Source: Candidatus Nealsonbacteria bacterium (GTDB lineage: Bacteria > Patescibacteriota > Minisyncoccia > Minisyncoccales > JAGGXC01). Taken from it: a stretch of DNA of 64,000 bases. Made by a program: the position numbers and the translations under genes. Shown here one piece after another: positions 1,837-58,572 of the stretch (the stretch's first letter is position 1; each line of letters begins with the position of its first letter). Below the pieces are notes generated by a model that saw only the letters and a program-made list of their open reading frames with translations, ran no database searches and was not told the DNA's origin. Location of the stretch: the NCBI GenBank assembly GCA_026396195.1, contig JAPLXH010000005.1:3710-67709 (forward strand). The letters run 5' to 3'.

Positions 1837-2307
1837 ATGAAAACCAAAGTCAAAAGCAAAAATGCTTTTAAAATTATTTTATGGATTTTATTATTATTTT
1901 TGACAATCGTTCTTTTTTGGCTGGTTAGAAATTGGATAATTTTGAAAAATTACGAGGCACAAAACGTTGCCATTTCTACCGACAAAGCGAATTATCAGGA
2001 AGAAGAAGCTTTAAGATTAAAAATAAAAAACGAATCCAGGGATACGCTTTGTTTTTCTAATTTTTTTCCTTATTTTTTGGAAAGAAAAGAAGACAGCAGG
2101 TGGTCGCTTTATAAATACGTGCCCTTGCAAAATAAAGATTTAATTGTAAAATGCATGACAGCCGGAGAAATCAAAGCTTTTGAAACAATATTGTTCGGGG
2201 GAAAGGGGATTCATCGCATTGCTATTCCTTTTTGCGCCAATTGTCAGGTTGGAGCGGAGTTTCAAGCCAATAAAATATATCATTCTAACGAATTTACAAT
2301 CGAGTAG
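1837..2307 (+). CDS. hypothetical protein with N-terminal membrane anchor
   Basis: ORF with a hydrophobic N-terminus (IILWILLLFLTIVLFWLV). No recognisable domain. Confidence 0.5.
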   Translation: MKTKVKSKNAFKIILWILLLFLTIVLFWLVRNWIILKNYEAQNVAISTDKANYQEEEALRLKIKNESRDTLCFSNFFPYFLERKEDSRWSLYKYVPLQNKDLIVKCMTAGEIKAFETILFGGKGIHRIAIPFCANCQVGAEFQANKIYHSNEFTIE

Positions 2308-2375
2308 AATGTAAATTCGTTTACGATTAAATAATATAACCAGTTTATATAATTAAGCAGTATAAATCTAAAAAA

Positions 2376-2600
2376 ATGAAAATTATTCAAGAAGAATCAA
2401 AATGTATCGGTTGCGGCACTTGCGCGAGTTTGTGCGCTAAATACTTTGAAATGAGGGATGACGGCAAGGCCCATTTGATAGGGTCAAACTTGATAGACAA
2501 GGAAAGCGAAAAATACGAGAAAACAATAGAAGAGCTTAGTTGCGCCAAAGACGCGGCCGAAGGATGCCCGGTTCAATGCATTGAAATAAAAAATAAATAA
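2376..2600 (+). CDS. small ferredoxin
   Basis: CIGCGTCASLC cluster motif plus a distal C-P (EGCPVQC), 74 aa. Confidence 0.7.
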   Translation: MKIIQEESKCIGCGTCASLCAKYFEMRDDGKAHLIGSNLIDKESEKYEKTIEELSCAKDAAEGCPVQCIEIKNK

Positions 2601-2612
2601 AAAAATAATAAA

Positions 2613-3323
2613 ATGTTAGAAATTAACGCCAATATCAGAAAGGAGGCCGGCAGAAAAACAAAAAAACTCCGAAAAAAAGGAGTTTTGCCTGCCGTTGTAT
2701 ACGGGTCAAAAATGAAACCCGTATCTTTGGAAGTGGAAAGCAAAAGTTTCGGAAAAACGTACAGCAAAGCCAAGGGAAGTTCTCTTGTGTCTTTAAAAAT
2801 AGAAGGAAAAAAAGAAAAATACTTGGTTTTAATTCATGATTTCCAGAAAGACCCTTTAACCGGGAAATTTATTCATGTTGACTTTTATCAGCCTTCCTTG
2901 AAAGAAAAAATTCAAATTAAAATTCCTTTAGTTTTCGAGGGAGAATCGGAAGCAGTAAAGAGCTTGGGAGGTACTTTGATTAAAAACATTGCAGAACTGG
3001 AAGTCAGGGCTTTGCCTGAAAATCTTCCCCATGAAATTAAGGTGAATATAGGAAAAATTAAAACCTTTGAAGACCATATAAAAATTTCAGACTTGGAAAT
3101 TCCGGAAAACGTGGAAATATTAAAAAACCTCGGAGAAATTGTGGCTTCCGTGGTACCGCTGGCAAAAGTGGAGGAAGAACTGGAAAAACCGATAGAAGAA
3201 AAAATAGAAGAAATAGAAAAAGTAGAGAAGAAGAAGGAAACGGAAGAGTTAGAAACAGAAGAAGAGAAAAAAGAGAAAAAAGAAGAGAAAAAAGAAGAAA
3301 AATCTCAAAAAAATAAACAATAA
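2613..3323 (+). CDS. rplY: 50S ribosomal protein L25/Ctc with Glu/Lys-rich C-terminal tail
   Basis: N-terminus RKEAGRKTKKLRKKGVLPAVVYG is typical of bL25. The C-terminus is a low-complexity E/K tail. Confidence 0.85.
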   Translation: MLEINANIRKEAGRKTKKLRKKGVLPAVVYGSKMKPVSLEVESKSFGKTYSKAKGSSLVSLKIEGKKEKYLVLIHDFQKDPLTGKFIHVDFYQPSLKEKIQIKIPLVFEGESEAVKSLGGTLIKNIAELEVRALPENLPHEIKVNIGKIKTFEDHIKISDLEIPENVEILKNLGEIVASVVPLAKVEEELEKPIEEKIEEIEKVEKKKETEELETEEEKKEKKEEKKEEKSQKNKQ

Positions 3324-3328
3324 AAAAT

Positions 3329-4759
3329 ATGAAGCTTAAAATTTTACAAATACTCCTGGTATTTGTTTTGGTTTTGGGCTTTGCTTTGCCGGCTTCCAAG
3401 TTTTTTTTAAAAGCAAACGAAAATTTGGAAGAAATTTGCCAGATAGATAAGCTTGATAAGGACTGTGAAAGTCTTTCGGCGACTGATTGCCGGCAACTTT
3501 TAGAAAAATGCGAAATTTATTTTCAAGAAAAAAGCGATAAAATCGCAGAGGATATCGGCAAAACAGAAGCTGAAAAGAAAACCTTAAAGAACCAGATTTC
3601 TGTTTTATCCGGCAAGATTACAAAGCTGAATTATCAGATTGACCAAAATAATATTATGATAAGAGACTTAGGTCTCCAGATTAACGACACCCAAGGTTCT
3701 ATTGACAAAACTACCCTAAAAATTGAAGAATCAAAAAGCCAGTTGGCTGAGGTTTTAAGAGAGGTTTACGAACAAGACCAAAAATCAACGATAGAAATTT
3801 TAATCGGCAATGAAAAACTTTCTGATTTTTTTGATAACCTGACAGCCTTGGAATCTTTGAATGAAAAAAACCAGCAGCTTTTAGAAGATATTAAAAATTT
3901 AAAAAATTCATTAGAAGATCAAAAGAAGTCTTTAGGGGATGAAGAAGGACAACTAGAGTCAACGGTTAAATTGCAAATTCTTCAGAAAGCAGAGAACGAT
4001 AAAAACAAAAAAGATCAAGAATATTTTTTAAAACTGACCGAAGCTGAATACCAAAAATATTTAAAAGAAAAAACAGAGGTTGAGAAGCAAACAGCGGAAA
4101 TCAGGTCTCGAATTTTTGCGTTAATTGGAGTTGCCAAGGCTCCAAGTTTTGGAGAAGCGGTTGAACTGGCTAAGTATGTTGAAAAAAGTACAGGGGTTAG
4201 GGCTGCTTTTCTTCTAGCTATTATTAGCCAAGAATCAGCCATTGGAAGGAATGTTGGCCAATGTGTGCTTACTGATCTTAAAACAGGAGATGGAAAAAAG
4301 TTATCTAGCGGGGACTTAGCTATTAGGGTAATGAAACCGACCAGAGACGTTTCTCCTTTTTTAGAGTTAACATCATCCTTAGGAAGGGATCCGTATAATA
4401 CCCCAGTTTCTTGTTGGATACCCATGTATTCTAAGGGAAGCCCTTATGGCTGGGGTGGGGCAATGGGTCCTGCTCAATTTATTCCTTCAACATGGAACTT
4501 GTATGCTGATAAATTAAAAACTCTTCTTGGGTTGTTTGCCGACCCCTGGGCAATAAAAGATTCTTTCACGGCAGCAGGGCTATTTTTAGCTGATTTGGGA
4601 GCTTCAGCCCAGACTTCGGCAAAAGAGAGCAGTGCGGCTTCAAGGTATTATGGCGGGTCATCCGGTTACACGGCTGGTGTAAAGGCAAGAGCAACTTGTA
4701 TCCAGAGTTTTATAGACAACGGAACCATGTCTTCAAATTGCCAGGATATGATTTTTTAG
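3329..4759 (+). CDS. secreted coiled-coil protein with C-terminal lytic-transglycosylase-like domain
   Basis: Signal/anchor peptide and a long heptad-like region. The C-terminus carries SQESAIG and GPAQFIPSTW, which resemble the SLT catalytic Glu-Ser and G-x-M/A-Q...TW motifs. Confidence 0.65.
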   Translation: MKLKILQILLVFVLVLGFALPASKFFLKANENLEEICQIDKLDKDCESLSATDCRQLLEKCEIYFQEKSDKIAEDIGKTEAEKKTLKNQISVLSGKITKLNYQIDQNNIMIRDLGLQINDTQGSIDKTTLKIEESKSQLAEVLREVYEQDQKSTIEILIGNEKLSDFFDNLTALESLNEKNQQLLEDIKNLKNSLEDQKKSLGDEEGQLESTVKLQILQKAENDKNKKDQEYFLKLTEAEYQKYLKEKTEVEKQTAEIRSRIFALIGVAKAPSFGEAVELAKYVEKSTGVRAAFLLAIISQESAIGRNVGQCVLTDLKTGDGKKLSSGDLAIRVMKPTRDVSPFLELTSSLGRDPYNTPVSCWIPMYSKGSPYGWGGAMGPAQFIPSTWNLYADKLKTLLGLFADPWAIKDSFTAAGLFLADLGASAQTSAKESSAASRYYGGSSGYTAGVKARATCIQSFIDNGTMSSNCQDMIF

Positions 4760-4816: not shown

Positions 4817-5566
4817 TTACGCGTTACTGTTTTTAAAAGCCTTGACTATTGGCTCTAAATTTCCATCTAAAATTTTTTCCAGATTATGCCAGGATTTTTT
4901 TATTCTATGGTCGGTTATCCGGTCTTGGGGAAAATTATAAGTACGTATTTTCTCTGACCTTTCAGCCGAACCTATCTGATTTTTTCGCTCTCCCGTAATT
5001 TTTTCTTGCTCCAGTTGTTTTTGTCTTTCAAGAAGCCTTGCCGCCAAAATGCTCATTGCGTTTTCTTTATTTTCCAGCTGATTTCTTTCGGTTTGAGAGG
5101 TGACTACCAAGCCGGTTGGCAAATGAGTAATTCTGATGGCTGTTTCTCTTTTATTTACATTCTGTCCGCCCGGTCCCGATGCTCGGTAAACGTCAATTTT
5201 TAAATTTTCCGGCCGGATTTGAATTTCCGTTGGTTTTGGTTTCAATAAAACGGCACAGGTGATAGTTGAAGTATGGACTCGGCCGTTTTTTTCGGTTCTT
5301 GGAATACGTTGAACCCGGTGAACGCCGCCTTCATGTTTTAAGCTATCCCAAGCTCCCTCTCCTTTTAGTTCGAAAATTACATGTTTTAGCCCCCTCAAAG
5401 AAGTAGGATTTATATCCAAGGTTTTTTGCTTCCAACCTCTATATTGAGCGTAATTTGAGTACATTCTGAAAAGGTCTTTGACAAACAAAGCCGCTTCCTC
5501 GCCGCCGGTTCCGGCTCTAATTTCAAAAATAAGGGCCTGGGATTCTTTTTTAACTTCATTTTCCAT
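4817..5566 (-). CDS. prfA: peptide chain release factor 1, lacking N-terminal domain 1
   Basis: GGQ motif (ASGPGGQNVNK), RF1-type recognition region RVQRIPRTEKNGRVHTS, and EIRAGTGGEEAALF close to the N-terminus. Only 249 aa. Confidence 0.8.
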   Translation of the reverse strand: MENEVKKESQALIFEIRAGTGGEEAALFVKDLFRMYSNYAQYRGWKQKTLDINPTSLRGLKHVIFELKGEGAWDSLKHEGGVHRVQRIPRTEKNGRVHTSTITCAVLLKPKPTEIQIRPENLKIDVYRASGPGGQNVNKRETAIRITHLPTGLVVTSQTERNQLENKENAMSILAARLLERQKQLEQEKITGERKNQIGSAERSEKIRTYNFPQDRITDHRIKKSWHNLEKILDGNLEPIVKAFKNSNA

Positions 5567-5568
5567 GC

Positions 5569-5799
5569 TTATTTTTTGCTTTTTTCTTTGGTTTTAGCCT
5601 TAGCCAATCTTTTTTTGAATTTTTCGACTCGTCCCATCTTGTCTAGAATTTTATCTTTTCCGGTATAGAAAGGGTGGCATTTAGAGCAAATTTCAGTTTC
5701 AATGTATTCTTTTGTTGAACCAACCGTAAAAGAGTTGCCGCAGGCGCATTGGACCTTGGCATTGGGGTAGTATTTGGGATGAATTTCTTTTTTTGCCAT
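5569..5799 (-). CDS. rpmE: 50S ribosomal protein L31
   Basis: [11 protein letters not shown]...CxC...[11 protein letters not shown], the zinc-ribbon type L31. Confidence 0.9.
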
Positions 5800-8393: not shown

Positions 8394-9899
<1,506 letters not shown>

Positions 9900-10046
9900 A
9901 TTTTAAGTGTCGGCTATAATTGAAATCGGAAATTTGGATTTTAATTATAAGGTATTAATCGAACCGCGGAAAATTGTTTTTAACAATTCCGCGCCTGCGT
10001 GAATAGAGAGTATATTCTGCGCGGTACCTTCAAAGATCGATTGCTT

Positions 10047-10073
10047 AGTTCGAAACGACTCTAAGATACTAAC
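10047..10073 (+). other. 3' strand of the pre-16S processing stem (partner 8363-8389)
   Basis: agttcgaaacgactctaa (10047-10064) is the exact complement of ttagagtcgtttcgaact (8372-8389). Pairing extends imperfectly to 8363/10073. Confidence 0.65.
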
Positions 10074-10160
10074 TTAAAAAACAAAAGCCTTTACCCCCCT
10101 CCCTTATTATAAGGGAGGGGGTTTACAGTTTTTGTATTTTTAATTAAAATCATGTTATAA

Positions 10161-10232
10161 GGGCGTGTGGCTCAGTGGTAGAGCGCGTTCCTGATAAGAA
10201 CGAGGTCGAAGGTTCGATTCCTTCCACGCCCA
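10161..10232 (+). tRNA. tRNA-Ile(GAU)
   Basis: GGGCGTG TG GCTC AGTGGTA GAGC G CGTTC CTGATAA GAACG AGGTC GAAGG TTCGATT CCTTC CACGCCC A. Confidence 0.95.
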
Positions 10233-10353
10233 CTTATAAAAGGGCCTATAGCAAAACAGAATTTTGATATATCAAGCTTCAGCTTGCTATAGTTTAATGG
10301 CAGAACACTACATTTGTCCCGATTGGAAATCGAGGATTCCTGATAACTTTGGT

Positions 10354-10428
10354 GGGCCCGTAGTTTAGTGGTAGAACGCCTCATTTGCAATGAGGAGATT
10401 GTGGGTTCGATTCCCGCCGGGTCCACCA
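10354..10428 (+). tRNA. tRNA-Ala(UGC), CCA encoded
   Basis: GGGCCCG TA GTTT AGTGGTA GAAC G CCTCA TTTGCAA TGAGG AGATT GTGGG TTCGATT CCCGC CGGGTCC A CCA. The G3:U70 identity pair is present. Confidence 0.95.
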
Positions 10429-14134: not shown

Positions 14135-14815
14135 ATGACAAGTTGGTCTATGATTATCCGTGAAAGTTTACAAGGTCTTTTACAAGATTCAATATCTTAT
14201 CTTCCTAAAATCCTTATAGCATTGATTGTTGTAATAATCGGTTGGCTTGTGGCCGTAGGGATTGGAAAGGTAGTAACAGAAATTTTGAGAAGAATAAAAT
14301 TTGACACTCTTTTTGAAAAAGGAGTTTGGAAACACGCTTTACAAAAAGCTGAATGGAAAATCGACCCTTCAGGGTTTATCGGAGCCATAGTTAAATGGGT
14401 TTTATTCGTTTCTTTTTTAATAGCAGCCGTAGAGATTTTAGGGTTTATTCAATTTGCTATTTTTGTCACCAATATAGCTGCTTGGTTGCCGAATATTATA
14501 GTGGCAGCGGCTATTTTTGTGGTAGCGGTAATTGTCGCAGAATACTTGCCAAAAATCATCAGAGCCGGGATTGAAGGATTGGAAATAAAATACGGCAGTT
14601 TATTGGAAACATTGACAAGAGGAGCGATTTGGGTTTTTGCCGTTCTGGCCATCTTAATTCAGCTGGGAATTGCCGAGGAATTAATTATGACTTTGTTTAC
14701 CGGTTTTATAGCATTTTTGGTGATTGCCGGAGGTTTGGCTTTTGGTTTGGGAGGGAAGGATGCTGCCGCAGAATTTTTGGAAGACGTGAAAAAGAAAATG
14801 AAAGAAAAAGAATAA
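14135..14815 (+). CDS. multi-TM membrane protein (conserved TM-helix-repeat type, MscS-associated-like)
   Basis: Repeated hydrophobic helices ending in GLAFGLGGKDAAAEFL. The family assignment is tentative. Confidence 0.5.
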   Translation: MTSWSMIIRESLQGLLQDSISYLPKILIALIVVIIGWLVAVGIGKVVTEILRRIKFDTLFEKGVWKHALQKAEWKIDPSGFIGAIVKWVLFVSFLIAAVEILGFIQFAIFVTNIAAWLPNIIVAAAIFVVAVIVAEYLPKIIRAGIEGLEIKYGSLLETLTRGAIWVFAVLAILIQLGIAEELIMTLFTGFIAFLVIAGGLAFGLGGKDAAAEFLEDVKKKMKEKE

Positions 14816-40618: not shown

Positions 40619-41284
40619 ATGAAAAAAAATATTTTAGTTAAAATAACGATTTTATTTATAATATTCGTGTCTTTCGGGATGAGCGCTTTTTTTTATCCCG
40701 TACTTCCCGATAAAATGGCTTCCCATTGGAACATTAAGGGAGAGATAGACGGTTATCTGTCTAAAACTTGGGCTTTATTTTTGATGCCCGCAATTTCCTT
40801 GATATTATTTTTATTTTTCATTTTAATTCCCAGAATAGACCCCTTAAGGGAAAATATCGAAAAATTTATAAAATATTATTACGGGTTTATTATAGTTTTA
40901 ATTTTATTTTTATATTATATTTACTACATTACTCTTATTTTAAATATCGGATTTAAATTTAATATTATCCAATTATTAATTCCCGCTTTTGCCGGCCTTT
41001 TTTATTATCTGGGCATTCTAACGGAAAACTTAAAAAGAAACTGGTTTATCGGCATTAGAACTCCCTGGACATTGAGCAGTGACAATGTTTGGTTAAAAAC
41101 CCATAAAACCGGAGGGAAACTTTATAAAACTTGCGGAGCGATTACGCTTTTGGGGATATCTTTTCCTGATTTTGCCATTTTTTTAGTTATTTTACCTATA
41201 ATTTTATTTTCTTTAGGCTTGATTGTTTTCTCTTATTTTGAATATAAAAAAGAGGAAAAAAAATCCAAAAGAAGAAAAAAATAA
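40619..41284 (+). CDS. SdpI/YhfL-family (DUF1648-type) membrane protein
   Basis: N-terminal LPDKMASHWNIKGEIDGYLSK pattern plus a C-terminal multi-TM SdpI-like region. Confidence 0.6.
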   Translation: MKKNILVKITILFIIFVSFGMSAFFYPVLPDKMASHWNIKGEIDGYLSKTWALFLMPAISLILFLFFILIPRIDPLRENIEKFIKYYYGFIIVLILFLYYIYYITLILNIGFKFNIIQLLIPAFAGLFYYLGILTENLKRNWFIGIRTPWTLSSDNVWLKTHKTGGKLYKTCGAITLLGISFPDFAIFLVILPIILFSLGLIVFSYFEYKKEEKKSKRRKK

Positions 41285-41398
41285 ATAATTTTTTTTGGTA
41301 TTTTTTAAATAAAAAAAGGCTTGATGCCTTTTTTAACGGAAATTAATCTCCAATAAGTTAAAATAAAATCTATGTTTTTAAACTTAAATATCGCGTTT

Positions 41399-43015
41399 AT
41401 GAAAAAAAAGCCGATTATTTTAATTATTATAGTTTTAATTTTAATTTTGTTGGGAAGTTATAAGTTTTTTTTTGGTGTAAAAAAAGAAGTTTATAATTTT
41501 GATACGGCAAAAATTGGAAACGTTGTTCAGGAGGTATCTGCTGTTGGCCGAGTTCAGAAAGGAGAGCTGATAAATTTAGGCCTTAAAGATGTCGGTAAGA
41601 TTGATAAAATTTATATTAAGGTTGGAGACGATGTTAAATCCGGAGAAAAATTATTAAAAATTGAAACAACCCAGCTTTCAATTCAGCTCGTTGAAGCTAA
41701 AGCTGCTTTAGATTTGGCAAACTCAGAATTAAACAAGTTATTAGTCGGTGAAACTCCGGAAAAAATTAAAGTTATTCAGACAGGGGTTGATAATGCCAAA
41801 ATTACTTATGAAAATGCAAAACAATCATTGACCGATATTACTAATTCAGCCGAAGAAAATTTAAATTCATCTTATGAGGATGCTTTAATTATTTTGGAAG
41901 ATTCTTATTTGAAAGCTTACAACGCTTTCAATTCCGCGGATTTAATCAAAAGAACGTATTTTACCTATAATGACCAGGAAAGCATAAATTTTAAAGAGAA
42001 AAAAGAAATAATAGAAAATTTAAAAAACCAGATTAAATACTATTTGGATTTGGCAAAAGCAGACCCAAAAAGCCAAAATATTGATATTGCCTTAACCAAA
42101 ATAAAAGACAATTTAGATGATATTTACGATGCTTTAAGCGTGATTCGAAATCTTTGCGAAGGAAATTACCGGGACATTGTTTCTTCGACTGATAAAACTT
42201 ATTTAGACACCCATAAAACAAACATTAATACCGTTTTAGCCAGCATTGTTAGCGCTGAACAATCTATTTCTTCAACAAAATTAACCAATAATTACAATAT
42301 AAATACCGCTAAAGCTTCGGTTCTTTCAACGGAAGGGGCTTTTAAAAAAGCACAAGACGAAATGTCTCTGATGTTGGCCGGTCCCCGGCAAGAAGATATT
42401 GATTTATACCGGGCTAAAAAAAATCAGGCTGGAGCAAGGCTTAATATTTTGGAAAATCAAATCGCAGAAGCTGTTTTAAAAAGTCCTGTGGATGGAAAAA
42501 TAACAAAGATAAATAAAGAAATAGGTGAGCAAGTATTGATGGGCGAGGCGGTTATTTCTTTAATCCCGGCAAAACCATTTCAAGTTGAAACGGATGTTTC
42601 CGAATCGGATATCGGAAAAATTAAAATTGGAAATTACATCAAAATTATTTTAGATGCTTTTCCGGAAGAAGAATTTTCAGGGAAGGTGATTGAAATTGAC
42701 CCTGCCGAAACCGTAATTGCCGGCGTAATTTATTATAAAATCAAAGCCAGCCTTGAATCTGAAGATGAAAGAATCAAACCTGGGATGACGGCAAATCTTA
42801 CCGTTATTATTGACTCGAAAGAAAACGCCTTGGTTATTCCCCAAAGAGCGGTTATTGAAAAAAATGGCAAGAAATTTACAAGAATCTTAAAAAACAAGGA
42901 TAATTTTGAAGAAATAGAAATACAGACCGGTTTAAGGGGAAGCAGCGGTGTAATTGAAATTTTATCCGGCCTGAAAGAAGGAGATAAGGTTATTACTTCA
43001 ATAAAAGAGAAATAA
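41399..43015 (+). CDS. HlyD/MacA-type periplasmic adaptor
   Basis: TM anchor, lipoyl-like VKSGEKLLKIE, a long coiled coil, a second lipoyl half SPVDGKITKIN and a beta-barrel tail. Confidence 0.75.
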   Translation: MKKKPIILIIIVLILILLGSYKFFFGVKKEVYNFDTAKIGNVVQEVSAVGRVQKGELINLGLKDVGKIDKIYIKVGDDVKSGEKLLKIETTQLSIQLVEAKAALDLANSELNKLLVGETPEKIKVIQTGVDNAKITYENAKQSLTDITNSAEENLNSSYEDALIILEDSYLKAYNAFNSADLIKRTYFTYNDQESINFKEKKEIIENLKNQIKYYLDLAKADPKSQNIDIALTKIKDNLDDIYDALSVIRNLCEGNYRDIVSSTDKTYLDTHKTNINTVLASIVSAEQSISSTKLTNNYNINTAKASVLSTEGAFKKAQDEMSLMLAGPRQEDIDLYRAKKNQAGARLNILENQIAEAVLKSPVDGKITKINKEIGEQVLMGEAVISLIPAKPFQVETDVSESDIGKIKIGNYIKIILDAFPEEEFSGKVIEIDPAETVIAGVIYYKIKASLESEDERIKPGMTANLTVIIDSKENALVIPQRAVIEKNGKKFTRILKNKDNFEEIEIQTGLRGSSGVIEILSGLKEGDKVITSIKEK

Positions 43016-43722
43016 TGATAGAGGTTAGGAATATTAAAAAAACTTATAATGGCATTGTCCCCACCAAAGCTCTTGATGGGGTTTCTTTTGATATTGCAGA
43101 AGGAGAGTTTGTGGCCATTATGGGACCATCTGGTTGCGGTAAATCAACCTTAATGCATATTATGGGTTTTTTAGATAAGCCGAGCTCCGGAACTTATAAA
43201 TTAAAAGGAAGAAGTATGGATGATTTTAATGATGACGAACTGGCGAGAATAAGAAACAAAGAAATGGGTTTTGTTTTCCAAAGTTTTAATTTACTTGCGA
43301 GAACCTCTGTTTTGGAAAACGTTAAACTTCCTTTGACTTATAGCGGGCTATCTTCTGAAATGGAGGATAAACTGGCAATAAAGGCCTTGGAAGCAGTCGA
43401 CCTTTCCAAGAGGGCTCCTTATTTATCAAATCAATTATCCGGCGGAGAACAGCAAAGAGTGGCGATAGCTCGAGCAATAGTAAATCATCCTTCGGTTATT
43501 TTTGCCGACGAACCAACGGGAAATCTGGACAGCAAGTCCGGCCAGCAAATAATGGATATTTTGCAGAAAATTAATGATGAAGGGCGTACGATAATTTTGG
43601 TTACTCACGAAAAATACACCTCGGAAATGGCCAAACGTCTTATTCAGCTGAAAGACGGAAAAATAGTCAGCGATGAAAAAATTGCCTATAGAAGGCTCGC
43701 CAAAGACGGTTTGATCAAATAA
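43015..43722 (+). CDS. ABC transporter ATP-binding protein (MacB/LolD-type)
   Basis: GPSGCGKST (Walker A), LSGGEQQRVAIARA (signature) and VIFADEPTGNLD (Walker B). Confidence 0.9.
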   Translation: MIEVRNIKKTYNGIVPTKALDGVSFDIAEGEFVAIMGPSGCGKSTLMHIMGFLDKPSSGTYKLKGRSMDDFNDDELARIRNKEMGFVFQSFNLLARTSVLENVKLPLTYSGLSSEMEDKLAIKALEAVDLSKRAPYLSNQLSGGEQQRVAIARAIVNHPSVIFADEPTGNLDSKSGQQIMDILQKINDEGRTIILVTHEKYTSEMAKRLIQLKDGKIVSDEKIAYRRLAKDGLIK

Positions 43723-43863
43723 ATTTTATGAACCCCGTTAGAAGTCCTAGACATAAAAAATTTAAGTTAAATTTTTTATGTTTATTGCTAGCGGGGTATA
43801 AAAAAAATAAAAGTTCGTCAAAAATCAACAACCTGTTGCTTTATAAGACGAACTTCTAACTGG

Positions 43864-45120
43864 GTGAAACTATTATATTCTTTTAAAACAGCTGTTATCG
43901 GCTTAAAAACGCACAAAGTTCGTTCCTTTTTAACCATGCTTGGAATTATTATCGGAATTGCGGCTGTAGTGGGAATGATGTCTTTGGGAGCCGGAGCTCA
44001 AAACTTGATAGTGGGCCAAGTGATGTCTTTAGGTTCCAATAATGTTTTTATTGAGCCGGGATCTTTTGACCCTAAAAAAACTTCAATGATGGAAGCGATG
44101 ATGGAGCAGATGGAAATAAAAACCTTAAAAATCAGCGATTGCGAAGCGATAACAAAATTGAATAACGTAGAATCGGCATCTCCGATAGTTATGGGAATGG
44201 GAAGGGTTGTATATAAGGGTATTGATAAAAAAATAAGTTTTCTTGGCACCAATGAAAGTGCTCAAAAAGTTTTAGAAAATAAAATTGTTTTGGGCCGGGA
44301 AATGACGGAAACGGATATTAAATCCCGGGCCGCTGTTGCTATTTTGGGTTATAAAATTAAACAGGATTTATTTGGCGATGAAGATCCGATAGGTTCGACG
44401 ATAAGAATTAAAAATGTAAATTTTAAAGTAATAGGGGCGGCGGAAGAAGTGGGAAGTCAGATGTTTCTTTCGATTGATGAATATATATTTGTTCCGGTTA
44501 CCGCCGCTCAGAAGCTTTTGTTGGGAACGGATCATTTAAATAATATTATAATGAGAATAAAGGACGAAAAAAAATTAGATGAAACGATAGAAGATGTGCG
44601 CTTTCTCTTGAGGGAAAGGCATAATATTTACAATCCCGAGAATGATTTAAGTAAGGATGATTTTAGGATAATGAGCCAAGAAGAAGCCGCCAGCACCTTA
44701 ACTTCAATTACCGGAATCTTTACTTTATTTCTTTCAAGCGTCGGCGCTATTGCATTGGTCGTGGGGGGCATTGGAATAATGAATATTATGTTAGTTTCCG
44801 TGACTGAAAGAACAAGAGAAATCGGTTTAAGAAAAGCTGTAGGAGCTCGGAAAAAAGATATTTTGTTACAGTTTTTATTGGAAGCCATCGTGCTTACCAT
44901 TATAGGAGGAATTATAGGCATTATTTTGGGGATTATTTTTTCTTTTATCGGGGGCATAGCCATTAGTAATATTTTAAGCGTAGGATGGAAATTTTTTATT
45001 TCCTTGAAAGCCATAGCATTGGGTTTTGGCTTTTCGGCTATGACCGGACTGGTTTTTGGAATTTATCCGGCTCGTAAAGCCGCTAAATTAAATCCAATTG
45101 AAGCTCTTCGTTACGAATAA
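43864..45120 (+). CDS. ABC transporter permease, MacB/FtsX type (GTG start)
   Basis: N-terminal TM, large periplasmic domain, then a C-terminal FtsX 3-TM block with REIGLRKAVGA. Confidence 0.85.
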   Translation: MKLLYSFKTAVIGLKTHKVRSFLTMLGIIIGIAAVVGMMSLGAGAQNLIVGQVMSLGSNNVFIEPGSFDPKKTSMMEAMMEQMEIKTLKISDCEAITKLNNVESASPIVMGMGRVVYKGIDKKISFLGTNESAQKVLENKIVLGREMTETDIKSRAAVAILGYKIKQDLFGDEDPIGSTIRIKNVNFKVIGAAEEVGSQMFLSIDEYIFVPVTAAQKLLLGTDHLNNIIMRIKDEKKLDETIEDVRFLLRERHNIYNPENDLSKDDFRIMSQEEAASTLTSITGIFTLFLSSVGAIALVVGGIGIMNIMLVSVTERTREIGLRKAVGARKKDILLQFLLEAIVLTIIGGIIGIILGIIFSFIGGIAISNILSVGWKFFISLKAIALGFGFSAMTGLVFGIYPARKAAKLNPIEALRYE

Positions 45121-45782: not shown

Positions 45783-45910
45783 ATAAAAAATTTATTAATA
45801 TTTTTTATTTTAGATTGAAAATTATCCCTGCCTTTCACGCGTAATTTCGGATTTGAAAGTATTTCAGCTTCGTTGTATCCTAGATATAATGTAAGTAATA
45901 TTTTTAAAAC

Positions 45911-46108
45911 ATGGAGGAAAAAAATTATTATTTAAGAAATTTCGTGCCGGTAATTATGGGCTGGTTTCTTTTGTGCGGTCTTTTTGGTTTTTTCTTTATT
46001 TTGGCCCGAGCCAGTTTTACGACAACCGACAAGGAAAAAGTTTTTATCATTAGTTGGTTTCTATTGGTGGTAATAATCCAAATTTATACTTTTTTATTCA
46101 GCGGATGA
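45911..46108 (+). CDS. two-TM ORF ending at an in-frame TGA (possible 5' part of a longer gene)
   Basis: 65-aa ORF. Same frame as 46361-46951, and the 84 codons between them contain no stop. Confidence 0.45.
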   Translation: MEEKNYYLRNFVPVIMGWFLLCGLFGFFFILARASFTTTDKEKVFIISWFLLVVIIQIYTFLFSG

Positions 46109-46360
46109 TTAAAATTAATCGGAATTAATTTTGAAAACAGAGATTCTTTTTTAGTCAACAAGCATATTTTAAACAATAAAATTAATCCTGAAATCTCCGA
46201 TAAAGATTTAAAAGACCTTTTTTACGCTTTAAAAAAAGAACCGTTTATTATTTTAAAAAGAACCTTTATTTACGGATTAATCGGCGCTATTTTTTTTGCC
46301 GTTATAATATACGTATATAAAATTTCATTTTTAGACATACTCACGATTTTAAACGGCGGC

Positions 46361-46951
46361 TTGATTTCTTTGATAGTTTTGACTCTTTTTTTGATATTTT
46401 TCGTGGAAAGATTTTTTAGCGGTTTCTTAAGAGAGTGCAGAAAAATTCTGAAAGAAAGGGGAATTTATCCGGGCGAAGAAGAATGGTTGTCGACCCTTAA
46501 AAGCAGGTTCAATTATTTTATTATTCTTCTTTTTTTGGTGGTTGTTATCGTGGTAAGCTTTGTTTCGATTTTTAATCTTTATTTGCTGGCCATTATCGCC
46601 CTGGGCCTTTTAATTTCGATCATGATAAGCAAGGAATTGTTCGCCTCCGTTTATTTGGTTTTTGAAGAAGTTAAAAATTTCAGCACCGAACTTTCTCAGA
46701 AAGAAAAAGCGGAATATTTCACAGGCAGTTCTTATAAAGAAGTTTTTAATTTATCCAAAGATTTAAATAAAAGCGCTCAAGATATTTATACTGCCAGAGA
46801 CAAAGAAAGAAAAGCCAAAAAAGAATTGCAGGAAAAATTGGATGAACTGGATAAATGGTACAGGTTTTCAGTCGGCCGTGAGTTAAAAATGGTGGAGTTA
46901 AAAAAAGAGATATCAAAACTCAAAGAGGAAAAAGACGATTCTGATAAATAA
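46361..46951 (+). CDS. membrane coiled-coil protein with C-terminal LDKWYR-VGRELKM-ELK module (true start uncertain)
   Basis: The ORF-track TTG start lies in the middle of a TM helix. The upstream frame is open back to the TGA at 46106. Confidence 0.55.
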   Translation: MISLIVLTLFLIFFVERFFSGFLRECRKILKERGIYPGEEEWLSTLKSRFNYFIILLFLVVVIVVSFVSIFNLYLLAIIALGLLISIMISKELFASVYLVFEEVKNFSTELSQKEKAEYFTGSSYKEVFNLSKDLNKSAQDIYTARDKERKAKKELQEKLDELDKWYRFSVGRELKMVELKKEISKLKEEKDDSDK

Positions 46952-46978: not shown

Positions 46979-47689
46979 ATGGAAAAATTAGCGATAGAAG
47001 AATCATTGTTTTTATATAAAAATATTTTCGATAAAATAATCGAACCGGTGGTTATTTTTGACCCAAATGGAAATATCAACTATGTCAACGAAACATTGAT
47101 TAAAATAGGAGAATACGGCTTAAAAGAAATTCAATCAAAGCCGATTATTTTTTTGCTTCCCGACCGGGAAAAAAATCGTATCGAGAGTTTAATCCGAGAG
47201 GTTTTAAAAGAAGGCAAGACTTACCGAGATTTTAACACTTTTTTCCAGACAAAAAATAAAAAGGAGATACCCATTGCTCTTACTTTAATTCCGTTATTGG
47301 AAGGAAAAAAAATAATCGGAGGATTTGCCATTATTGTTGATATAAGACAATTGGAGGGTTTGCTTGAAGGTTTAAATCGGGCCAGGTCGGAATTAGAGCA
47401 AAGAGTAAAAGAAAGAACCCGTGATTTGGAACAAAAAACATCAGAACTGGAAAAAGCGAAGATGGCCATTGAGGAAGCAAAAAACATTCTTGAAGTTAAA
47501 GTGGCCGCCAGAACCCGCGAGTTGAAAGAGCTTAATGAAAAACTGGAAGAAAAAGTCGGGCAAAGGACTAAAGAGCTTCAAGAAAAATTAAATGAACTTG
47601 ATAAATGGTACAGATTAACGGTTGGCCGGGAGTTAAAAATGATAGAATTAAAGGAAGAAATAAATAAATTTAAAAAAAGAATGTTGTGA
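46979..47689 (+). CDS. PAS-domain protein with coiled coil and the same C-terminal module
   Basis: PAS-like FDKIIEPVVIFDPNGNINYVNETL...G. The C-terminus is ELQEKLNELDKWYRLTVGRELKMIELKEEINKFK. Confidence 0.65.
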   Translation: MEKLAIEESLFLYKNIFDKIIEPVVIFDPNGNINYVNETLIKIGEYGLKEIQSKPIIFLLPDREKNRIESLIREVLKEGKTYRDFNTFFQTKNKKEIPIALTLIPLLEGKKIIGGFAIIVDIRQLEGLLEGLNRARSELEQRVKERTRDLEQKTSELEKAKMAIEEAKNILEVKVAARTRELKELNEKLEEKVGQRTKELQEKLNELDKWYRLTVGRELKMIELKEEINKFKKRML

Positions 47690-48268: not shown

Positions 48269-48421
48269 TTGACAAGTTAATATAGTTTTATATATAATGG
48301 CATTATCCCGTAGACAGCAGGCTCTGCGACAAGCTCATAAGACCTGCCGAGGAAAAAGAATATATGTTTTTATTCTATTTTTCGTCTGCGGAGAGCAGAC
48401 TTTTTGATTTATAAAAAAAAC
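48269..48421 (+). promoter_or_regulatory. rplJL promoter and leader with terminator-like hairpin (putative L10 autoregulatory leader)
   Basis: TTGACA (48269-48274), 16 nt, TATAAT (48291-48296). The leader has CAGCAGG/CCTGC pairing and GTCTGC-ggaga-GCAGAC+TTTTT (48384-48405), just before the ATG at 48422. Confidence 0.45.
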
Positions 48422-56703: not shown

Positions 56704-58572
56704 ATGCCAAAAATAATAGGTATCGATCTGGGAACAACTTATTCGGCCGTGGCCGCGATAGAAAATGGCGAGCCGAAAATCATTGAAAATCACGAAGGCG
56801 CCAGAACAACCCCTTCGGTGGTTTCAATTGCTAAAAACGGCGAAAGACTGGTCGGAGTGACTGCCAAACGCCAGCAAATTACAAATCCCAGAAACACGAT
56901 TTATTCAATTAAGAGATTAATCGGCCGAAAGTATTCAGACCCTGAAGTTCAACGGGACAAAAAACTCCTGCCTTATGAAATCAGGAAATCAACTGACGAC
57001 GAAGGAGTAGATGTAAAAATGGGAGACAAGTGGTACAAACCCGCCGAGATTTCAGCGATGATTTTACAAAAAATAAAAAGAGACGCCGAAGAAAAATTGG
57101 GAGACAAAGTTGAGGAAGCCATCATTACCTGTCCGGCTTATTTTGACGATTCCCAGAGAAAAGCCACTAAAGTGGCCGGAGAAATCGCCGGATTTAAAGT
57201 CAGACGGGTTATCAACGAACCGACAGCCGCTGCTTTGGCTTACGGTTTAAGCAAAAAGAAAAACGAACAGATAGTGGTTTATGATTTTGGCGGAGGTACT
57301 TTTGATATTTCCATTTTGAACGTGGGCGGAGACACGATAGAAGTTATCGCCACCGGCGGAGACACTCATTTGGGCGGAGACGACTTTGACCAGAAAATAA
57401 TGGACTGGCTGGTTGACCAATTTAAAAAAGACAACGGCATTGACTTATCTAAAGATGAACTGGCCTTGCAGAGATTAAAAGAAGCTTCCGAGAAAGCCAA
57501 AATAGAATTGTCTACTACCATGGAAACGGAAATTAATCTTCCTTTCGTTACTTCTGATGCTGCCGGCCCCAAACACCTTTATTACAAAATGACCAGAGCT
57601 CAGCTTGAAAACTTGGTTAAAAATTATATTGATAGGTCAATTGAGTTAATGACAAGAACTCTTATTGAGGAAGCAAAAATGAAAACCTCGGAAATAGAAG
57701 AAATAGTTTTAGTGGGTGGCCAGACCAGAATGCCGAAAATCAGGGAAGAAGTAAAGAAATTTTTCGGAAAAGAACCCTATATAGACATTAACCCCGATGA
57801 AGTCGTGGCAGTTGGCGCTGCCGTGGAAGCTGGAATTTTGCAGGGCGAGGTGAGAGATGTTTTGCTTTTGGACGTTACTCCTTTATCTTTGGGAATTGAA
57901 ACTTTGGGAAGCGTGAACACGGTTTTAATTCAAAAAAACACCACTGTTCCCACCGCTAAAACTCAGACTTTTTCCACCGCTGCCGATAACCAGACCTCGG
58001 TTGAAATTCATGTTTTACAGGGCGAACGGCCAATGGCAAAAGATAACAAAACTCTTGGCAGGTTTATGCTGGACGGCATTCCGCCTTCACCAAGAGGACT
58101 TCCTCAGATTGAGGTTGTTTTTGACATTGATGCCAACGGCATTTTAAACGTTTCTGCTAAAGACAAAGCCACCGGCAAGGCCCAATCAATCAGGATTGAA
58201 AGTTCAATTGGCATCTCAAAAGATGAAATTGAAAAAATGAAAAGAGAAGCGGAATTGCACGCTGAAGAAGACAAAAAGAAACAGGAATTAATCGGGTTGA
58301 AAAACCAGGCCGATAATATAATTTATGTTTCTGAAAAAACCTTAAGGGAAAATAAAGACAAGGTTTCTTCCGAGATAGCCAAAGAAATTCAGGAAAAAGT
58401 TGATGACTTGAAAAAAATTAAAGACGGAGAGGACGCCGCTGCAATAAATGATAAAATTTCAAATTTATCCCAGGCCATTCAGAAAATCGGCGCTGAAATG
58501 TATAAAAAAGCTCCGGACCAAAAACCCGAAGAGAAAAAAGGACCTGAAGAGGGACAGTATAAAGAAAAATAG
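56704..58572 (+). CDS. dnaK: molecular chaperone DnaK
   Basis: [22 protein letters not shown] and [10 protein letters not shown]. Confidence 0.97.

Follow-up and report, generated by a model that had tools for sequence, protein, structure and literature searches.

An in-frame TGA in a membrane protein gene of a Candidatus Nealsonbacteria genome is very probably a G>T change private to this assembly, at a glycine codon that relatives conserve

What does a single in-frame TGA in an otherwise open gene represent: a recoding signal, the boundary between two genes, or a change that is either erroneous or very young? The question arises at 46106–46108 of the window, which here means the whole 64-kb stretch of DNA that was analysed; it belongs to a 104-kb contig from a MAG that NCBI lists as Candidatus Nealsonbacteria bacterium. 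On the forward strand, the frame at 45911–46951 consists of 347 codons including the terminal TAA at 46949–46951 (346 codons plus stop), and its sole internal stop is the TGA, at codon 66. A listing of open reading frames therefore gives a 65-aa ORF at 45911–46108 and a 196-aa ORF at 46361–46951 that begins at TTG 46361. Between the two lie 84 codons (46109–46360) that are free of stops and of ATG, GTG and TTG.

The original prediction read these pieces as one membrane coiled-coil gene of about 346 codons split by a lone TGA, and both our recount of 46109–46360 and the frame count agree with that description. It had also considered the open stretch unlikely as non-coding DNA, and the numbers bear this out: given the base composition of the window (35% G+C), the chance of 84 stop-free codons is ~0.001, and that of 84 codons with neither a stop nor a canonical start is ~1e-5. 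Within the real coding frames of the window, a run of 84 codons free of start-type codons has P ~0.008. No second stop with long open flanks and a long start-less stretch behind it was found on the coding strand of the 64-kb window.

Is the frame one gene? When the read-through product, with X at the stop, was used as the query, 28 homologues of 331–388 aa were retrieved, each of them one continuous protein (~345 aa) that covers 92–100% of the read-through product; five of the 28 are 85–92% identical to it. Orthologues in the form of two separate genes, which the original prediction had set against a single split gene, were not seen among them, as all 28 are single ORFs. The same search also returned the 196-aa fragment of the MAG itself. 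Continuous matches across residue 66 were likewise found in four GTDB species representatives of Patescibacteria. One shorter protein, P0025 (277 aa), starts just after the Gly-Gly motif discussed below and was considered as a second split; its contig has an uninterrupted full-length ORF, for which the start was merely called too far downstream. As for the 196-aa ORF, TTG 46361 is the first start-type codon available, it aligns with an internal Leu or Ile in all homologues, and it corresponds to residue 151, which lies inside the predicted transmembrane (TM) helix 140–182 (TM4), as had been proposed. These results indicate that 45911–46951 is a single gene for an uncharacterised membrane protein of Patescibacteria.

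The surroundings of the gene are conserved as well, in the order MacB/FtsX permease, PCMT, the target gene, a PAS protein, DJ-1/PfpI, L10, L7/L12 and PHP. The PAS-domain protein (46979–47689, forward strand; Pfam PAS, 1.8e-10) adjoins the target gene also in L001, L005 and L008, the three closest lineages with available DNA, and it is probably a functional partner of the target gene.

Several further observations were made at this locus. In L001, the closest relative (the lineage of protein P0001), a 349-aa YceG/MltG gene lies at 1939–2988 between PCMT and the target gene. The window (45783–45910), L005 and L008 show no more than a short spacer between genes at this place, so a gene for a cell-wall enzyme was recently gained or lost among Nealsonbacteria that are nearly identical. 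In L013, a relative with ~50% identity, a 459-aa FIST-domain sensor gene (2092–3471) is placed between the target homologue and the PAS gene, as would fit a small signalling cluster at this locus. Farther downstream in the window, a ribosomal protein L10 leader (RF00557, 51.9 bits; 48290–48414) precedes the L10-L7/L12 genes and is ordinary.

Could the gene have been decaying behind the TGA? We polarised the changes with L005 and L008 as outgroups and compared the branch that leads to the window with the intact sister branch, L001. The window branch carries 36 synonymous and 12 nonsynonymous changes, all of the latter conservative, and no indels; the sister branch carries 35.7 and 9.3, respectively. 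Omega is ~0.08 in the N-terminal, middle and C-terminal segments, and the pairwise values are 0.05–0.22 for the N-terminal part and 0.04–0.07 for the C-terminal part. The 84 start-less codons behave in the same manner, with a pairwise omega of 0.06–0.10 against the three relatives, and in them the window branch has acquired 13 synonymous changes and 3 nonsynonymous ones. Downstream of the TGA, neither extra lesions nor a raised dN/dS was detected on the window branch. The 84 codons are thus real coding sequence under purifying selection, and the gene was under normal purifying selection over essentially all of its independent history. The stop is accordingly either extremely recent or not real.

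The codon itself was then compared among the relatives. The window reads AGC GGA TGA TTA at this place, and the corresponding codons are AGY GGA GGG TTA in L001, AGC GGA GGA TTA in L005 and AGC GGC GGG TTA in L008, so that the comparison of orthologues, suggested at the outset as a check, finds a sense codon for glycine in each of the three. The flanks of codon 66 are collinear with all of them and contain no indel. Given the glycine codons of the relatives and these collinear flanks, the lesion amounts to one G>T transversion, at position 46106, in a GGA codon. TM2 ends in a conserved Gly-Gly motif, which includes the affected residue and reads (F/C)SGGLKLI in the five closest relatives, and the column of this residue is Gly in ~25 of the 28 homologues and rarely Val, Leu or Ala.

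A more direct comparison is offered by a public assembly of the same strain. The proteins on either side of the target also occur, with exactly the same sequences, in the Logan assembly of run SRR20698647, where both of the MAG's fragments are absent. Its contigs agree with the window at 14,191 of 14,192 unique bases, and the one mismatch is position 46106, which is G in Logan and T in the window. The four contigs that provide this cross-check, which covered 14 kb of the 64-kb window, are L012 (window 40859–44912, 0 mismatches), L010 (44883–46262, with the 1 mismatch at 46106), L011 (46343–51689, 0 mismatches) and L094 (25337–28777, 0 mismatches). The ORF of L010 reads FLFSGGLKLIGINFEN and stays open for 117 codons to the end of the contig. 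The G at 46106 matches all orthologues, which rules out an error in the Logan assembly, and an intact gene exists in this strain. The original prediction had named reads with a different base call as evidence that would refute it, and contig L010 supplies such a difference in substance. The MAG may derive from SRR20698647 or from another sample of the same strain.

In the Logan assembly of this strain, contig L010 ends 156 bp beyond the site, an 80-bp gap (46263–46342) follows inside the target gene, and L012 and L010 share a 30-bp (k−1) overlap at 44883–44912. Both breaks may reflect low coverage or local heterogeneity and graph branching. The T allele at 46106 was absent from every other assembly in the searchable collections. 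An exact-pattern scan for either TGA or GGA at the site gave 0 matches in genome contigs and, in metagenome contigs, only the known L005 contig, which has GGA. Look-ups in the contig index of P0006, the cluster formed by the 196-aa fragment, and of a 622-aa protein encoded at 56704–58572 found neither on record, and a literature search on SRR20698647 returned nothing relevant.

Taken together, we consider it very probable (roughly 0.92) that 45911–46951 is one intact gene in which the conserved Gly66 codon carries a private G>T change, and that this change is either an error or a very young nonsense allele. A normal glycine codon in an otherwise identical assembly of the same strain means that the TGA is not programmed, and it points to an ordinary sequencing error or a rare mutation and not to recoding. 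On the one hand, the T could have entered the deposited MAG as a base-call, consensus or polishing error. On the other hand, it could be a very young nonsense allele that is present in part of the population and was caught in the consensus, in which case the cells with the T allele would be left with a stub of 65 aa and two helices in place of the sensor. We regard these two origins as about equally likely; both predict, once it is allowed for that the finding was selected as a stop, one nonsense difference and none else in the 14 kb compared. The class of the change gives a mild hint towards an artefact, as G>T is typical of oxidative (8-oxoG) library damage.

With regard to a nonsense pseudogene, there is a premature stop at codon 66 of 346 relative to intact orthologues, and the lesion is not fixed in the strain, as the intact GGA of the Logan assembly demonstrates. 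Of the four causes originally put forward, then, sequencing error and a recent pseudogene or nonsense allele stand, and read-through and a second gene do not. The locus resembles the known consensus errors and rare nonsense variants of MAGs in showing one substitution relative to the relatives and to a same-strain assembly in a frame that is otherwise conserved; it does not differ from them in kind, and only the G>T class is notable. It also resembles the split gene calls of MAGs, in which two fragments are annotated and the second runs from the first available start-type codon.

Could the UGA nevertheless be real and dominant, with tolerated or programmed read-through (Trp inserted by a near-cognate tRNA-Trp, or Gly) that yields less of the full-length sensor? 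UGA is generally the leakiest stop codon, the frame downstream is intact and shows no decay, and the residue replaced is Gly, which is what UGA means in genetic code 25, the code of other Patescibacteria lineages (Absconditabacteria/SR1 and Gracilibacteria). However, the UGA is not conserved, as the orthologues have GGA or GGG and the same strain has GGA; the absence of decay is explained equally well by a very recent or artefactual change; and GGA is among only eight sense codons one step away from TGA, so that a match to Gly is expected from a point change. Nor is the hairpin downstream significant or conserved, and we regard read-through, tolerated or programmed, as very improbable. The same hairpin, a stem-loop at 46111–46132 that begins 2 nt after the UGA, would have to act as a bacterial SECIS if selenocysteine were inserted at this site. 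Its location and A/U composition are as first described, although it has 9 perfect A/U pairs around a CGGA loop and not 10 bp. The 66-nt context folds no better than shuffled sequences (z = −0.29, with 72 of 200 shuffles at least as good), and its minimum-energy fold leaves the proposed stem unused. The stem-loop has a dG of ~−5.2 kcal/mol (with flanking pairs) in the window and in L001, −1.3 in L005 and 0.0 in L008, and the latter two have a sense codon at the site. The hairpin is a by-product of the AT-rich codons for Leu-Lys-Leu-Ile-Gly-Ile-Asn-Phe and no functional element. A stem-loop within a few nucleotides of UGA is what the locus shares with bacterial selenocysteine recoding; it differs in that its homologues have Gly and neither Cys nor Sec, that the all-A/U stem-loop is weak, is lost in L005 and L008 and does not exceed shuffles, and that the protein is non-redox, with the site at the end of TM helix 39–69. 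No tRNA-Sec is found among the 7 tRNAs of the 64-kb window. Selenocysteine is accordingly given next to no probability.

That UGA has been reassigned to Gly throughout the genome, the situation in Absconditabacteria and Gracilibacteria, is just as far-fetched here. It would account for a UGA at a conserved glycine position in a genome of Patescibacteria, and in this the locus is like genetic code 25. It is unlike that code in that there is a single instance, that TGA is a regular terminator and that the same strain has GGA. About 10 of the 56 long ORFs of the window end in TGA, in several cases overlapping the following gene as ATGA or GTGA, and these ends agree with those of the orthologues; the PAS gene, for example, has TGA as its terminator in the window and likewise in L001 and L005, and L008 uses TAA at a corresponding position. 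Only one in-frame TGA occurs in 64 kb of dense coding sequence, the tRNA-Trp has the anticodon CCA, and no tRNA with a UCA anticodon is present in the window. TGA is a true terminator, and the window uses the standard code. What, finally, of two real genes, in which a 65-aa two-TM protein is followed by a protein that starts at ATC 46118, ATT 46124 or TTG 46361? The deposited annotation does have two proteins, and ATG 46105 overlaps the TGA as ATGA, in the manner of other gene junctions of the window. However, that ATG lies in another frame and opens an ORF of 7 codons only; no homologue is split; the 196-aa product from TTG 46361 would start mid-helix in TM4; and purifying selection also acts on the 84 codons without a start, in one frame with the rest of the gene. 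ATC and ATT do occur at the positions originally proposed for a non-canonical start, and both are ordinary internal Ile codons in a gene that is a single ORF in every homologue. A frameshifted start at ATG 46105, which would combine the ATGA overlap with a 1-nt indel in an A-run, was rejected on the collinearity of the flanks with the three relatives, which show no indel. Two genes thus seem somewhat less probable even than read-through. Read-through, selenocysteine, reassignment of UGA to Gly and a second cistron hold together only a very small share of the probability, and with each contradicted by at least one direct test they are effectively excluded.

There is also a version of events in which the T allele is real and common in the source population, and in which either ribosomes pass the UGA at Gly66 part of the time or selection favours the truncation as such. 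We give it very little weight. If it were true, the population would keep a switched-off or dialled-down membrane sensor, and the UGA would be a first step at a glycine codon in a lineage of Patescibacteria with the standard code.

The window contains some further features of the translation apparatus. RF2 is not present in the 64-kb window, and the only class-I release factor gene in it is a short RF1-like gene on the reverse strand (4817–5566) that encodes 249 aa with GGQNVN and the PRT tripeptide and is without the N-terminal domain of ~100 aa. It starts 3 nt after the end of the L31 gene rpmE (5569–5799, reverse strand). This ORF was considered as a second broken gene and rejected, as rpmE occupies the space upstream; because rpmE lies directly upstream, the RF1-like gene is natively short and not broken. 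The interval 8395–10428 carries a 16S rRNA gene with tRNA-Ile(GAT) and tRNA-Ala(TGC) behind it, protein-coding ORFs resume at ~11032, and no 23S rRNA gene is found anywhere in the 64-kb window; the rRNA operon appears to be unlinked.

Returning to the reading of one gene with a private G>T change, the consequences for annotation are direct. The 65-aa fragment, which contains TM1 and TM2 only, is deposited as hypothetical protein NTU58_01305 (MCX6764323.1), and the 196-aa fragment as hypothetical protein NTU58_01310 (MCX6764324.1). The two are annotation fragments of one gene, and they should be replaced by one gene or by one pseudogene entry. The 84 codons between them, for which a cytoplasmic loop, TM3 and the start of TM4 are predicted, are unannotated. 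Through the 196-aa entry, a false start is passed on to protein databases, in which this entry has its own cluster (P0006) already. As this case illustrates, an independent public assembly of the same strain, such as that of Logan, can decide between recoding and error without reads.

What kind of protein does the intact gene encode? No Pfam or NCBIfam model matches it, and neither a sequence search of the PDB nor a Foldseek search against the PDB gave a significant match. An AlphaFold2 model was made on P0001, which is 92% identical, from 27 homologues; it is of good confidence (pLDDT 80.6, pTM 0.67) and wholly helical, with long helices at 6–33, 39–69, 97–135, 140–182, 196–216, 223–263 and 276–344. 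Six TM segments are predicted from hydropathy. Provided that the C-terminus lies in the cytoplasm, the positive-inside rule would place the two larger Lys/Arg-rich loops (~66–115 and ~166–195) there as well, and the outer loops would measure no more than a few residues. The model continues from the last TM helix with a helix (223–263), a 12-residue connector (the loop 264–275) and a second helix (276–344). In an hhalign comparison, residues 275–342 of the target matched residues 213–279 of the sCache-HAMP protein P0030 with a probability of 98%, in an alignment that overlaps only the last part (AS2) of the Pfam HAMP of P0030 (181–231) and runs on along the tail behind it. Pfam HAMP (PF00672) itself gave no match to the target or to P0001 even at E ≤ 10. 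As modelled, the succession of TM6, helix-connector-helix and coiled coil is a HAMP-like architecture.

The gene product would therefore be, if topology and model are correct, an inner-membrane protein of 346 aa that crosses the membrane with six helices and has its two termini in the cytoplasm, and in which the last TM helix leads through a HAMP-like helix-connector-helix into a long coiled coil and from there into a conserved ...VGRELKMxELKKEI... module. Its topology and the C-terminal module that it shares with other proteins suggest the role of a membrane-embedded signal sensor without enzymatic output. In the model it would be like the HAMP-linked sensors (histidine kinases and chemoreceptors) in a helix-connector-helix after the last TM helix that continues into a coiled coil, and like the intramembrane-sensing kinases with minimal extracytoplasmic loops in the predicted very short periplasmic loops. 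Unlike these systems, it has no kinase, methyl-accepting, GGDEF or other output domain, and it ends in a helical module of ~35 aa that lies outside the Pfam and NCBIfam models.

This module (QEKLDELDKWYRFSVGRELKMVELKKEISKLKEE; 46829–46948, forward strand) occupies the last 35–40 residues of the target, ELDKWYRFSVGRELKMVELKKEISKLKEE. Its consensus is ...EL[EDN]K[WF]xxL[TS]VGRELKM[VI]ELKKEIxxLKxE; it spans ~35 aa and is helical. Over 56 aa, the target module and the C-terminus of the PAS protein next door are 57% identical. The signal would probably leave through the end of the coiled coil together with this adjacent PAS protein, which carries the same module, and we infer that the end module pairs with like modules, for example that of the PAS protein, or binds a common partner.

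Copies of the module were observed in the window at 46829–46948 and 47590–47686 and within L043 325–1719, L062 205–1698 and L052 760–1737. Proteins of the sCache-HAMP, dCache, REC-PAS, PAS-PAS and multi-TM types carry it at their very C-terminus, and so do multi-PAS proteins of Ramlibacter albus, of Methanosarcinales and of a deltaproteobacterium. In the GTDB species representatives, at least 347 candidate loci, in Bacteria and Archaea, were found. No Pfam or NCBIfam model covers the module, and a literature search on the GRELKM/GRELRM motif returned nothing relevant.

The TGA is consequently of little biological importance and is nothing new as a feature of recoding or gene structure; the value of the finding is corrective. 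The gene family that it has brought to attention appears to be an uncharacterised membrane sensor of Patescibacteria, and more interesting than the stop is its C-terminal module, which looks like a widespread output or partner-binding part of sensors without an enzymatic output domain.
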